From Alphaproteobacteria bacterium (GTDB taxonomy: Bacteria; Pseudomonadota; Alphaproteobacteria; Bin95): a DNA stretch of 64,000 nt. Below the pieces are notes generated by a model. It saw nothing but the letters and a program-made list of their open reading frames with translations, did no database searches and had not been told where the DNA came from. Below, one piece after another: positions 38,393-45,007 of this stretch. The DNA lies in assembly GCA_963665325.3 (NCBI GenBank), contig OZ224045.1, forward strand, positions 1,440,001 to 1,504,000, in the 5' to 3' direction. How positions within the stretch are numbered: the stretch's first letter is position 1; the number at the start of each line of letters is the position of its first letter. The translations under genes and the position numbers were made by a program.

Positions 38393-38728
38393 ATGGAAGA
38401 CTTCGACCCTAGGCTGCTGCGCACCTTCCTTCATGTCGCCCGGGAAGGGAGCTTTTCGGCTGCCGCCCGGCGCATGGGCCTGTCGCCGAGCACGGTTTCG
38501 CTTCGGGTGCGGACGCTGGAAGAGCGGCTTGGAACGACACTGTTTCATCGCGGCCGCCGCGGCGTGGCCCTGGCGCCTTCGGGGTCGGGCCTGCTGCCGG
38601 CGGCCCGGGAAATCGTCGCCATGAACGACCGGCTGTTCGAACGCGCGGCTTCGATTTCTGTCCCGGAATCCGCCGCGCCCGGCCTTCCGCGCCGCGCGGA
38701 TGCGCCATCCGCCACCCCGGACCCCTGA
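38393..38728 (+). CDS. LysR-type HTH-only protein (no effector domain)
   Basis: LLRTFLHVAREGSFSAAARRMGLSPSTVS..VRTLEERLG..LF.R; ends after the linker helix in a Pro/Ala tail. Confidence 0.75.
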   Translation: MEDFDPRLLRTFLHVAREGSFSAAARRMGLSPSTVSLRVRTLEERLGTTLFHRGRRGVALAPSGSGLLPAAREIVAMNDRLFERAASISVPESAAPGLPRRADAPSATPDP

Positions 38729-38776
38729 CGGCGCCGGGTCATACCGGCGGCAGCGGGCCGCGCGCCGCGCTCCGCT

Positions 38777-38887
38777 CTCTCCTCATCCTGAGTAGCGCCC
38801 GCGCGAGCGGGCGCGTATCGAAGGACCGTTCCGGTGCCGGAAACGCCTCCCTCGATACGCGGCTGACGCCGCTACTCGGGATGAGGG
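38777..38887 (+). repeat. 111-bp palindromic REP-like doublet (CCTCATCCTGAGTAGC...GCTACTCGGGATGAGG), copy A
   Basis: Self-complementary ends; near-identical inverted copy at 45104-45214. Confidence 0.85.
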
Positions 38888-39256
38888 AAGTGGAGCGGGC
38901 CAACGGCAGTGGCCGCGTCGCCAGAGCGGAATCCATTTGAATTGAACCGCAACCGGAACCGAACCCAAAACCGTCACCCCGGCCCCCGAGCCGGGGTCCA
39001 GAACCGCCTTCGAAACCTGGTCAGGCCCCGGTAGACTGGACCCCGGATCTCCGCTCCGTCCGGGGTGACAATTGAGGCTCCGCGTTCGACTTCGTTTCAA
39101 CTCGAACGGACCGTGCTCTAATCGCGATGAGGGGGAAGTGCAGCGGACCAACGGCAGTGGCCGCGTCGCCGGAGCGGAGTCCATTCGAATTGAACCGCGA
39201 CTGGAACCGAATCCAAAACCGTCACCCCGGCCCCCGAGCCGTGTGTGGACGCCTCC

Positions 39257-39508
39257 CTGGATGCAAGCAGTTTTTTCGGCTTGGTCGGGCCTATGCGGTC
39301 AGGCGGAGTCGTGTGTCCGGTTTCCCTTGTGCGGCACTTGAGTTGCCGCGGGCCAGTATGGAGATACGCGGATCGGGTCCATATCGGGGTCATGCGCTCG
39401 CGGCGCGCCGGCTCAGCCTGGTTTTCCCGATCCCGTCTCATTGACCGTTTGCCCTTACCCCTTGCCTCGGCCTGCCTGCATCCTCCGACGGCTCGCCGCA
39501 CCGCCTTC
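39257..39508 (-). ncRNA. Putative seekRNA/bridge RNA of the IS1111-type element (exact ends unknown)
   Basis: Non-coding region downstream of the recombinase contains GAGCCG(G) and GACCCCG around a GCGC hairpin (both target halves ending in the CG core) and ACACACG (donor end). Confidence 0.72.
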
Positions 39509-40540
39509 TCAGGCGGCTGCGGGAGCCCGGTAGGTCTCCTTCTTCACGGCCAGCGCCCACAGGATGCGCGCCATGCGATTGGCGAGCGCGACGGCGACCA
39601 GCTTGCGCTTCCCTGGCTTGCTCGCCAGCAGGCGCGCCAGCCAGGGATCGTTGCACTTGCCCCGGCGGATGGCGTTCTGGATCACCGACATCGCCCCGAC
39701 CACCAGCAGGCGGCGCAGGTCCTTCTGGCCCATCTTCGAGATCTTGCCGAGCCGCGGTTTGCCGGCTGTACTGTGCTGGCGGGGCGTGAGGCCGAGCCAG
39801 GCAGCGAAGTCGCGCCCCTTGCGGAAGGTTTCGAGCGGCGGGGCCAGGGCCTGGAGCGCCAGCGCCGTGACCGGCCCCACCCCCGGCACGGTCATCGCGC
39901 GGGCCGCCTCCTCGTCCTCGCGCGCGGCGGCCCGCAGCGTCCGGTCCAGCTCTCTGACCTTCCCGTCCAGCTCGGCGATCCGTTCCAGCAGCAGTGCCCC
40001 CATCTCGTGCGTCAGCGCCGGCAGAGACGCCCCCTCTTCGCCCTCAAGTGCCCAGGCCAGACGTGCCACATGCGCCGGCCCCTTGGGAGCTACAAGGCCG
40101 AACTCCGCTAGATGGCCCCGCAGCGCGTTGATCGTCTGCGTGCGCTGGCGCACCAGAAGCATGCGCACCCCCAACTGCATCGCCCCCGCCTGGCTCTCCT
40201 CGCTCTTCACCGTCACGAAGCGCATGGTCGGGCGCTGCGCCGCCTCGCAGATCGCCTCCGCGTCCGCCGCGTCGTTCTTCTGCCGCTTCACATAAGGCTT
40301 CACATAAATCGGCGGGATCAGACGAACCTCATGGCCCAGCTTGCCGATCTCGCGGCCCCAGTAATGCGCACCCCCGCACGCCTCCATCGCAACCGTGCAG
40401 CGAGGTTGAGACAACAGAAACGCCAGAACCCGACCCCGCGACAGCTTGCGACGGAACGCCACCGAGCCGTCCGAATACGCGCCGTGCATCTGAAAGCTGT
40501 TCTTCGACAGGTCCACCCCGATGATGCTAACCTCCTTCAT
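39509..40540 (-). CDS. IS110 family DEDD recombinase (transposase)
   Basis: IGVDLSK, MEACG, KNDAADA, VPGVGP, AAWLGLTPRQHSTAGK, VALANRMAR. Confidence 0.95.
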   Translation of the reverse strand: MKEVSIIGVDLSKNSFQMHGAYSDGSVAFRRKLSRGRVLAFLLSQPRCTVAMEACGGAHYWGREIGKLGHEVRLIPPIYVKPYVKRQKNDAADAEAICEAAQRPTMRFVTVKSEESQAGAMQLGVRMLLVRQRTQTINALRGHLAEFGLVAPKGPAHVARLAWALEGEEGASLPALTHEMGALLLERIAELDGKVRELDRTLRAAAREDEEAARAMTVPGVGPVTALALQALAPPLETFRKGRDFAAWLGLTPRQHSTAGKPRLGKISKMGQKDLRRLLVVGAMSVIQNAIRRGKCNDPWLARLLASKPGKRKLVAVALANRMARILWALAVKKETYRAPAAA

Positions 40541-41266
40541 TGGATGCCTCCTTCCCATTGGGGGTTTCAACAACACCACCATGGCACATTGCGATGCCGT
40601 CGGATGGAGGCGTCCACCCTATCGGGGTCCAGAACCGCCTTCGAAACCCGGTCGAGCTCCGGTAGTCTGGACCCCGGATCTCCGCGCTCCGCTCCGTCCG
40701 GGGTGACAATTGAGGCTGCGCGTTCGCCTTCATTTCAACTCGAACGGACCGTGTTCTAATCGCGATGAGGGGGAAGTGCAGCGGGCCGACGGCAGAGGCC
40801 GCGTCGCCGGAGCGGAATCCATTTGAATTGAAGCGAAACTGGGACCGAACCCAAAGCCGTCACCCCGGCCCCCGAGCCGGGGTCCAGAACCGCTTTTGGA
40901 ACCTGGTCAAGCCCCGGTAGACTGGACCCCGGATCTCCGCTCCGCTCCGTCCGGGGTGACAATTGAGGCTGCGCGTTCGCCTTCGTTTCAACTCGAACGG
41001 ACCGTGTTTTAGAGCGGAATTCATTCGAAGTGAACCGCAACCGGAACCGAACCCAAAACCGTCACCCCGGCCCCCGAGCCGGGGTCCAGAACCGCTCTCG
41101 AAACCTGGTCAGGCCCCGGTAGACTGGACCCCGGATCTCCGCGCTCCGCTCCGTCCGGGGTGACAATTGAGGCTGCGCGTTCGCCTTCATTTCAACTCGA
41201 ACGGACCGTGTTCTAATCGCGATGAGGGGAAAGGGCGCCAGGCCGATGGCAGGGTTGCCGTCGCTA

Positions 41267-42589
41267 TCAGAACTGGCGTACGAAGCTGAGCTCGGCGCGG
41301 TCGCGTTCATAGTCGAGCGCCTGGGCGTTGGTCTCGCGCTGTTCGTTGATGAGCGAGAGGCGCGGGCTGAAGCCGAGCACGGTGACGGCGCGGTTGTGGA
41401 CCGAGAGCGAGAGGATCCGGGTCTTGTCCTCGCGGGGCTGCCGGTCGCGCGTGCGGTGGCGGAAACCCCGGCCTTCATAGTCCGTCCATACCATCGTCGC
41501 GCGCGCGCCGACGGTGAAACCCAGCGGCAGGGCCAGCGTTGCGCCAAGGCTGGCCGTCGGCCCGTCGGTGCGCCAATCCTCCTCCTCCGCGCGGCTCCAG
41601 TTCCAGCCGGCGTTTCCGCCGACGCGCAGGATCGGCAGCGCCACCCAGTTCGCGCCGAGCGAAACTTCGCCCACCGGGCCGTCCAGCCAGTCGCAGTCCC
41701 GGCAATTTCGTTCGCGAAGCCCGGCGCGACCCTGCACGGAGAGGCGCGGGGTCAGTTGTCGCGCCGCTTCCAGACGAAGGCCGTACTGGTCGGTCTCGGG
41801 TGTGCCGCTGCTCCATTGCCGCTGCACGGTGGCAAGCAGGCTGCCTTCCGTACGGGCGTCGATGAGCCAGCGCGGCCCGAGATAGGCGGACGCGAACTGC
41901 CGGTCGAACAGGCCGCCCTTGTATTCGCGGACCGAGGCGTCCGCCCCGGAGCGCAGGCGCCAGCGGGCCGCCAGTGGATACTGGTATTCGCCGCCGCCCC
42001 ATACGGAGAGGCCGAGCCCGGACTTCGGCGCGGTTTCCGCACCGCGGAGGAAGGGCAGCCGGCCCCAAGGCGTGTCGAGCCAGATTGTCCGGTTGTCTGA
42101 GGCGGTATTGAGATTGCTGTCGGGCGCCACGGCGAAGCCGAACCGCGCTTGCCAGCGCCGCCTTGCGCGCATGATATTCAGGAAACGCTGGATATTGGCT
42201 GCGACCGCAGGTGGCAGGTTCCCGGCCAGCGCGTGTTCGAAGTGCCGACGCGCCAGTGTGTCCTCCTCCTTCATGAAGAAGGCGCGGGCGAGTTCGAGCC
42301 GCACCCGCACAAGCTCCGGGCGGTCGATCAGGATCGACCGGAAGACGGAGATCGCTTCATCCAGCCGGGCGTCCCGCGCCTCCGGCGAGGCGGCTCCATG
42401 GGCGGCCTTGAGAGCGTTCATGCCGATCTTGAACTTGAGAGCGGCGCCGAAATCGGCCGCGGCATCCGGAGGCGTTGCAGGTCTTTCCTTCGCTGGGGCC
42501 GCAGTTTGCGCGAAGCCACCGGCCGGAGCCAGCAGGACAAGCAACAGCGGGAGGAACGAAAGTAGGCGAAGGGACCGGGGCGGCTTCAT
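41267..42589 (-). CDS. Surface lipoprotein assembly modulator (Slam/DUF560, type XI secretion outer-membrane protein)
   Basis: Signal peptide; TPR-like RPELVRVRLELARAFF...ARRHFE; APDSNLN; amphipathic beta strands; C-terminal FVRQF; adjacent to a TbpB-like lipoprotein. Confidence 0.82.
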   Translation of the reverse strand: MKPPRSLRLLSFLPLLLVLLAPAGGFAQTAAPAKERPATPPDAAADFGAALKFKIGMNALKAAHGAASPEARDARLDEAISVFRSILIDRPELVRVRLELARAFFMKEEDTLARRHFEHALAGNLPPAVAANIQRFLNIMRARRRWQARFGFAVAPDSNLNTASDNRTIWLDTPWGRLPFLRGAETAPKSGLGLSVWGGGEYQYPLAARWRLRSGADASVREYKGGLFDRQFASAYLGPRWLIDARTEGSLLATVQRQWSSGTPETDQYGLRLEAARQLTPRLSVQGRAGLRERNCRDCDWLDGPVGEVSLGANWVALPILRVGGNAGWNWSRAEEEDWRTDGPTASLGATLALPLGFTVGARATMVWTDYEGRGFRHRTRDRQPREDKTRILSLSVHNRAVTVLGFSPRLSLINEQRETNAQALDYERDRAELSFVRQF

Positions 42590-44844: not shown

Positions 44845-45007
44845 GTCGCCCCGGCCCTCCAATCGTCGTCCCGGACTTGATCCGGGACCCAGCACTGCCG
44901 GCGCAGCCCGCAGGGGCCTCGACAGGCTGGACCCCGGCTCGTTGGCCGGGGTGACAAGTAGTAGTTTGCCGGAGTGACAAGTAGCGGGTGGCCGGGGTGA
45001 CAGGTAA
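44845..45007 (+). repeat. REP doublet (GTCGTCCCGGACTTGATCCGGGACCCA...TGGACCCCGGCTCGTTGGCCGGGGTGAC) plus 23-bp tandem repeats, copy 1
   Basis: Direct copy at 45281-45469 and inverted copy at 48945-49096; GTTGGCCGGGGTGACAAGTAGTA repeated about 3 times. Confidence 0.85.

Follow-up and report, generated by a model that had tools for sequence, protein, structure and literature searches.

An IS1111-group insertion sequence in an alphaproteobacterial genome and a structured RNA that appears to read its target and its ends

We analyzed a 64,000-nucleotide (nt) stretch of DNA from an Alphaproteobacteria bacterium (assembly GCA_963665325.3, contig OZ224045.1, positions 1,440,001 to 1,504,000), here called the window, in which an earlier note had recognized an IS1111-type recombinase accompanied by readable RNA guides. 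We are highly confident that the insertion sequence (IS) in this window is an intact IS1111-group element whose DEDD recombinase works with a structured RNA that reads both the target and the ends of the element. Two unpaired strands of this RNA changed in step with the two halves of the insertion site across related elements, a third matched the right end and core of the element that carries it, and the helices that frame these strands were kept paired by compensatory changes.

The element and its insertion site

The element at 39242–40622 is a member of the IS1111 group of the IS110 family, and its sequence is whole. A Pfam search of the recombinase returned a DEDD domain (PF01548, N-terminal RuvC-like; E = 3.8e-13) and a C-terminal PF02371 domain (E = 3.7e-21), and the protein scored 303.5 bits against the NCBIfam model NF033542 (IS110 family RNA-guided transposase), for which the cut-off is 140. 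Its perfect subterminal inverted repeat of 12 base pairs (bp) falls within the 7–17 bp range of the IS1111 group, and 267 nt of non-coding sequence lie downstream of the recombinase gene vs. 82 nt upstream, matching the subterminal inverted repeats and the longer downstream non-coding region described as traits of this group (PMC11187229; PMC11208160). Together with the site- and orientation-specific insertion described below, these traits bear out the IS1111-type anatomy given in the earlier note, while the word intact, also taken from there, holds for the element at the sequence level and no further. Detectable sequence likeness to the solved ISCro4 and IS621 recombinases was limited to the C-terminal domain (E = 2.5e-09 and 1.4e-07, respectively). 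In the alignment with the ISCro4 chain, D10, E53, D90, and D93 coincide with acidic residues, and the catalytic Ser-Gly of that chain stands opposite Thr258-Ala259. As a correction, the gene starts at the ATG at 40540 and not farther upstream. Antisense to it lie open frames of 288 amino acids (39245–40111, plus strand) and 243 amino acids (39564–40295, plus strand), which are most likely artefacts of high G+C content.

Eight places in the genome matched the element, namely three full copies, one 73% relative (L004), and four fragments. The full copies, located on contigs C1, C3, and C4, were 100% identical over all 1378 queried bases, and all three were inserted in the same orientation at ...CCCCCGAGC-CG / CG-GGGTCCA, as anticipated from the proposal that other genomic copies should lie in GAGC|CG|GGGTC. 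The CG on both sides of the element was read on both strands, and at three empty sites in the same repeat cluster the flanks abut exactly (...GAGC-CG-GGGTCC...) with one CG. The insertion site is located in the right arm of an extragenic palindrome with an 8-bp stem and a 6-nt spacer (ACCCCGGC-6 nt-GCCGGGGT), which is embedded in a repeat unit of about 75 + 130 nt; the site of the C4 copy shares just about 22 + 7 nt with this repeat.

The target had been described as a repetitive extragenic palindrome (REP), and this description stood in part. The sequence is extragenic, repeated, and palindromic, but its copy number is far from the hundreds per genome of REPs: a 260-nt repeat unit compared with the genome by BLAST gave 31 matches, just 2 of which reached 180 nt, and the exact 11-mer target was present at 30 unoccupied sites vs. 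16.8 expected from composition. Counting the three full copies, 3 of 33 exact sites in the genome were occupied. The target is thus a low-copy palindromic repeat and not a classical high-copy REP. The window holds six of the 30 empty sites, three within the repeat cluster and further ones at 44930, 45386, and 49007. Tandem Repeats Finder reported no repeat between 37500 and 42500, and the repeat units were delineated by BLAST. The cluster sits between a 111-amino-acid LysR-type helix-turn-helix (HTH) fragment and a Slam-like outer-membrane gene; the fragment (38393–38728, plus strand) consists of the LysR-type HTH domain alone and looks truncated just before the cluster.

Helices and target guides of the downstream RNA

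Relatives were obtained from a scan of contigs in which 563 stretches matched and 454 encoded relatives; the best 80 (47–90% amino acid identity), the window element, and L004 made up the 82 elements examined. Sixty-five of them fit the geometry core, 6 nt, TGGA ... TCCA, 4 nt, core, and the 17 that failed were left out of the flank tests; flanks were cut in 7 of the 65. An identical dinucleotide was present on both sides in 55 of the 65 (TG 34, CG 16, AG 5). Related elements are also frequent on alphaproteobacterial plasmids, of which 935 records matched, with the best full-length matches 65–70% identical.

A 166-nt segment downstream of the gene (39289–39454, minus strand) was aligned with 56 non-identical relatives and examined with RNAalifold and a pair count. 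In these 57 sequences, 88.4% of cells were paired, compared with 25–43% when partners were slid by 1–3 columns, and the covariation score of 0.324 (0.05–0.06 for slid partners) was reached in 0 of 500 shuffles. Given that compensatory changes keep the helices paired, with 22 of 30 pairs altered on both sides in at least one sequence, we infer selection on an RNA. In element orientation, helix P1 closes a multiloop that holds P2, an internal loop, the P3 cap, a linker, P4, and a 3' strand. P1 (helix 1) had five of six pairs changed on both sides and was the weakest helix, with 59.5% of cells paired, because distant rows were poorly aligned there. The two helices of P2 (helices 3 and 4) were 89.5% and 97.7% paired, with compensatory changes in 8 of 10 pairs. 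The GCGC/GCGC arms of P3, already noticed in the note, were confirmed at 39408–39405 and 39397–39394 (minus strand), and the middle pair of this hairpin occurred as five pair types (CG 15, GU 12, AU 10, GC 9, UA 8). Helices 7 and 8 of P4 were 97–99% paired, with compensatory changes in four of five inner pairs, and the outer GGCC/GGCC pairing was swapped for CCC/GGG in the window element.

Both target guides were unpaired strands between helices in this consensus, so that the folding and covariance check placed them outside stems, surrounded by covarying helices. A weak 3-bp local stem over part of the 5' guide, seen in single-sequence folds, was not conserved in relatives and was discarded. 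A covariance model built from the alignment found the RNA in 76 of 80 related loci, and three of the four misses had less than 100 nt of downstream flank. In the genome, the model matched just the three copies and L004, with no orphan RNA copies, and an Rfam scan of 38500–41500 (E up to 1) matched no family. Second matches to the RNA model were present in L039 (1134–1296, plus, and 1393–1551, minus), L022 (904–1066), L035 (599–752), and L059 (1–95); in L039 the two matches are arranged tail to tail, suggesting elements that are neighbours or nested.

The minus-strand words picked out in the note were confirmed as GAGCCGG (39414–39408), GACCCCG (39391–39385), ATA (39384–39382), and ACACACG (39316–39310). 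For the guide test, 51 whole-flank elements represented 45 distinct guide classes, and each strand was slid over the expected word with the best score kept. The 5' guide scored 6.71 of 8 against its own target vs. 4.27 against the targets of others, and the 3' guide 8.13 of 10 vs. 5.19. For each guide the observed own-target sum was reached in 0 of 20,000 permutations, and the gap between own and other targets remained in the CG-core subset (12) and in the TG-core subset (26). L009, the closest relative (90% amino acid identity), differs from the window element at nine aligned RNA positions. Two of these lie in its guides, which change from GAGC to GAUC and from GACCC to GGCCC, and its target, AGGCCC|CG|GATC, carries the matching change. 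Likewise, L004 has guides GUGGAG-CA and AAUAA-UG-AU and the site GGAATAA|TG...CTCCAC. The proposals that both target guides end in the CG core and that guides and targets covary in homologs are therefore well founded. Also as proposed, the 3' guide continues through ATA into the IS end: the window has just two occurrences of TATCGGGGTC, at 39382 and 40620, where 0.06 are expected, and at least two occurrences were found in 0 of 100 shuffles. An 8-nt match early in the non-coding region, CGAGCCGU, was rejected as a guide because relatives that have other targets conserve the motif in which it falls.

The order of the guides in the window element is that of published IS1111 seekRNAs, in which the top-strand match lies 5' of the bottom-strand match according to Siddiquee et al. 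(PMC11187229). We found two of the features that define a bridge RNA or seekRNA: a conserved structured RNA with guide strands in loops, and a pair of target guides, each for one DNA strand, whose changes follow those of the target. Chance matching in GC-rich sequence, which could draw on the donor word CGTGTGT being no rarer than chance in the window and on the exact 11-mer target being just about twice as frequent as composition predicts, is refuted by the rarity of the 10-mer shared with the IS end, by the family-wide permutation tests, and by the one-base guide changes of L009 that its target follows. It is also very improbable that the internal matches act as DNA, as pseudo-ends or remnants of old junctions serving as alternative recombination sites, while the protein recognizes the palindrome. 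Although a 10-nt internal copy of the left junction does exist as DNA, the matches sit in strands framed by helices with compensatory changes, which implies selection on RNA, and the same correspondence between guides and flanks holds in relatives whose flanks are unrelated and non-palindromic. The location of the target in a hairpin-forming palindrome would suit such a DNA-based mechanism, as would the report that the target stem-loop of ISPpu10 adds specificity (10.64898/2026.03.19.712850), but the C4 copy occupies a site with a partial repeat only.

Several relatives showed irregular RNAs or junctions. L004 (G000:C5:113347-114739), in the same genome, carries a 23-nt tandem duplication of the P3 hairpin and the start of the 3' target guide, and its flanking dinucleotides differ (TG left, TC right) while its guides carry UG/CA. 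In L027, L031, and L056, from one genome record, and in L028, the left junction has TG and the right junction CG, and all three core-covering RNA guides read CG; this consistent asymmetry in four copies could reflect how a mismatched core is resolved. L005 (G000:C1:1733445-1733615) is a 171-bp left-end remnant of a 90%-similar element at ...GGCCCC-CG, a site corresponding to the left target half specified by the L009 guide and not by that of the window element.

Donor strands, handshake bases, and junctions

Comparison of RNA and element ends among relatives makes ACACA-CG a clear candidate for a donor guide reading the right end plus core, the role that the note had assigned to ACACACG. This 7-mer was identical to the element's own right end and core (7/7) in 48 of 54 rows and one base off in the remaining 6, and the matched 7-mers were of 11 different kinds (e.g., ATACACG, ACAGATG, ACGGATG, ACAAATG, and ATATATG). 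Given that CGTGTGT taken alone is within chance in the window (3 occurrences vs. 4.1 expected), the support for this guide comes from the relatives. On the plus strand, GAGTCGTGTGT (39306–39316) matches GAGCCGTGTGT (39236–39246) at 10 of 11 positions, which had been read as a longer match to the left junction and would amount to a handshake beside the donor guide. The four bases beyond the guide matched the right target flank at 50 of 136 positions vs. 41.1 for shuffled flanks, a value reached by 282 of 20,000 shuffles, and the extension held at 3 of 4 positions in the window element and at 1 of 4 in L009. Since the 7-mer recurs in relatives and the three extra matches do not, the string match and its 7-mer stand, the extension is unsupported, and we rejected the handshake at this place as weak.

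Because ACACA-CG lies just 3' of P4, a second donor guide was sought by symmetry just 5' of P4, where CUCCAU is probably that guide. It complements the 6-nt start of the left end, and across 16 distinct classes left-end positions 1 and 2 paired in 16/16, position 3 in 14/16, and position 4 in 16/16, counting wobble. At position 4, G:C was replaced by C:G in 3 classes (10 elements), and positions 5 and 6 paired partly. Donor-binding nucleotides in the multiloop were noted for many IS1111 orthologues by Durrant et al. (PMC11208160). With regard to the target loop, the two bases that follow the core of the 3' guide agreed with the opening two bases of the left end in 26 and 27 of 34 distinct classes, respectively, and with the cognate right flank in 12 and 9 of 34. 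These counts are consistent with a handshake formed by the bases after the 3' target guide, which cannot covary given that all left ends start with AT.

The ends of the element may also form a promoter when joined. In 47 of 54 distinct elements, a TTG stood at the same distance from the right end as the TTGCAT of the window element (19 nt). Joining the ends of the window element would place CACGAT, a word made up of the core and the two terminal nucleotides of each end, 17 nt downstream of TTGCAT; the corresponding word is CATGAT in 22 relatives. This arrangement fits a candidate junction promoter, of the kind described for the IS110 family (PMC12288879). Among contigs from four RNA libraries, one 163-nt contig was identical over 39324–39486; shares in the RNA runs were small, and parts of the element that no contig covers carry no information. 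Other contigs, from three studies, share 39418–39461 and diverge at 39417, a few bases from the start of the 5' guide, and one of the divergent tails reads like the loop of L010/L013; these contigs represent natural guide swapping in environmental data. The features of the window element are collected in Table 1.

Table 1. Positions of the element, its RNA strands, and its target repeat in the window (left and right in the element's own orientation, i.e., window minus strand).
Feature	Position	Strand	Basis
IS110-family, IS1111-group insertion sequence, 1381 bp	39242–40622	minus	3 identical copies on three contigs; boundaries from empty-site comparison
CG core copy, right-end junction	39240–39241		read directly
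CG core copy, left-end junction	40623–40624		read directly
Right-end subterminal inverted repeat, plus strand GTGGACGCCTCC, 3 nt inside end	39245–39256		perfect with 40606–40617
Left-end subterminal inverted repeat, plus strand GGAGGCGTCCAC, 5 nt inside end	40606–40617		12-nt perfect repeat with 39245–39256
Recombinase gene, 343 amino acids; D10, E53, D90, D93; motif GLTPRQHS-T258-A259	40540–39509	minus	Pfam, NCBIfam, alignment to ISCro4/IS621 chains
P1 5' strand (39447–39442), linker, P2 5' strand GGGAUCGGG-AAAA-CCA (39434–39419)	39419–39447	minus	folds and consensus
Target loop 5' strand GGCU-GAGC-CG, reverse complement of core + right target flank (right target guide, RTG, element frame)	39409–39418	minus	unpaired strand; guide/target tests
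P3 hairpin GCGC-GCCGCGA-GCGC between target guides	39394–39408	minus	helix 5, 96.5% paired
Target loop 3' strand AU-GACCC-CG-AUA, left target flank + core (left target guide, LTG, element frame) + first 3 nt of left end	39382–39393	minus	unpaired strand; guide/target tests
P2 3' strand UGG-A-CCCGAUCC	39370–39381	minus	pairs with GGGAUCGGG-AAAA-CCA
CUCCAU, candidate second donor guide, complementary to first 6 nt of left end (ATAGGG here, ATGGGG in most relatives)	39363–39358	minus	16 classes
P4 hairpin separating donor-guide strands	39319–39354	minus	helices 7 and 8
Predicted donor guide ACACA-CG(-A), last 5 nt of right end + core (left donor guide, LDG, element frame)	39309–39316	minus	family-wide 7-mer match
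P1 3' strand UGACCG, closes multiloop with 39447–39442	39296–39301	minus	CGGUCA/UGACCG pairing
TTGCAT, candidate -35 of junction promoter, 19 nt from right end	39261–39266	minus	spacing conserved in relatives
Cluster of 200–255-bp repeat units, each with palindrome ACCCCGGC-6 nt-GCCGGGGT	38872–41252		BLAST; one unit interrupted by IS
Empty target sites in repeat cluster	38988, 40874, 41076		exact-site search

Proposed mechanism and known systems

Several observations weigh against an RNA-guided, active element. The 5' target guide has only six contiguous Watson-Crick matches (eight counting one G.U), and single-sequence folds of the RNA are not unusually stable (z = -1.56 and -1.19). CUCCAU meets its own left end with an A.C mismatch at position 3, and its next two bases do not cover the core. 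The base after the core of the donor guide pairs with the cognate donor, and in IS621 such pairing is reported to lower activity (PMC11208158). The evidence from RNA libraries consists of contigs only, in which DNA carry-over is possible and which do not prove transcription. Finally, the catalytic motif reads S-T-A, while 75 of the 82 related sequences scanned carry S/T-S/T-G. The last point, the A.C mismatch, and the sparse occupation of exact target sites could together mean that the window holds a recent but now inactive copy, disabled by its Thr-Ala motif or by the mismatch between left end and second donor guide. We consider this improbable, though the most credible of the alternatives, given that three identical copies, each with its own flanks on a separate contig, point to recent movement, that L009 has the same ATAGGG end and CUCCAU strand and hence the same mismatch, and that TA is sometimes found as a natural variant of the motif according to Siddiquee et al. 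(PMC11187229).

On our preferred reading, an intact RNA-guided IS1111 element, the DEDD recombinase would act with a structured RNA made from the 267-nt downstream region, i.e., a bridge RNA or long seekRNA. The internal loop between P2 and P3 would read the target, with GAGC-CG of the 5' strand pairing with the top strand (core and right flank) and GACCC-CG of the 3' strand pairing with the bottom strand (left flank and core), and both guides together would specify GACCC|CG|GCTC in one arm of the palindromic repeat. After the 3' guide comes AUA, identical to the first three bases of the left end, as would be expected of handshake pairing after strand exchange. Two multiloop strands flanking P4 would read the donor, ACACA-CG the right end plus core and CUCCAU probably the left end. 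In the excised circle, the right end would be connected to the left end through CG, and recombination at the CG core would insert the element, leaving CG on both sides. The anatomy, site specificity, helices, and guide/DNA covariation behind this scheme come from our analysis, and the production of the RNA, its binding by the recombinase, the circle, and the order of strands are drawn from published work on relatives.

As described in PMC11208160 and PMC11208158, IS621 has the same two guides per DNA partner, one per strand and meeting at a 2-nt core, the same short handshake extension beside one guide that matches the non-cognate partner, and a recombinase that is likewise a DEDD and Ser-type enzyme. 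IS621 differs in having its RNA at the other element end, donor strands in an internal loop instead of a multiloop (PMC11208160), and a CT core in place of CG. When the window element is read on the opposite DNA strand, GAGC-CG as left guide, the hairpin, GACCC-CG as right guide, and the candidate handshake follow the IS621 order (PMC11208158), and this handshake would be complementary to the last bases of the left arm of the donor. We put forward tentatively, as an idea with somewhat less than even chances, that the complete structured RNA of this IS1111 clade (about 165 nt) is a two-partner bridge RNA, with a donor strand that follows the right end base for base and a target loop that corresponds to IS621 in layout when read on the opposite DNA strand, a handshake of 2–3 nt after the 3' guide included. 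If the analogy with IS621 holds, strand exchange in IS1111 elements would begin with the "bottom" strand as defined by the recombinase gene, and the long seekRNA would gain a role as the donor-reading form.

IS621, ISPpu9, and ISPpu10 likewise insert at a fixed dinucleotide inside repeated, hairpin-forming intergenic sequence (PMC12288879; 10.64898/2026.03.19.712850). By their descriptions, they belong to the IS110 group with the RNA upstream, and their REPs number in the hundreds, in contrast to the 31 unit matches and 33 exact 11-mer sites found here. In our literature search, no paper on handshake guides in IS1111 was found beyond general mentions, and a search for structures found no solved IS1111-type complex. 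For the IS1111 bridge RNAs of ISCARN28, ISAzs32, and ISPa11 (Durrant et al., Extended Data Fig. 10c), all four guides (LTG, RTG, LDG, and the right donor guide, RDG) are likewise predicted in an RNA at the right end of the element, and a multiloop holds the donor nucleotides.

The elements ISEc11, ISPa11, ISKpn4, and ISPst6, as presented by Siddiquee et al. (PMC11187229), share with the window element the subterminal inverted repeats, a recombinase gene followed by the long non-coding region, the two short target matches that overlap at the insertion point with the top-strand match 5', and natural retargeting between close relatives. The long form of their seekRNA (145–170 nt) fits the structured region of about 165 nt in our element; the role of this long RNA was left open in that source, and here its extra part tracks the right end. 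By the same description, our element differs in its target, its CG core, and its Thr-Ala in place of Ser/Thr-Gly. Our data set of about 50 related elements, in which two target guides and one donor guide change together with the DNA that each one matches, shows where the guides lie in one IS1111 clade and bears on two questions about IS1111, namely the job of the longer RNA form and the strand exchanged first. For genome annotation, it means that such guides can be read straight from sequence. The window element belongs to the known bridge RNA/seekRNA kind and adds no new principle; unsurprising to a specialist, it is well suited as a worked example of these systems.

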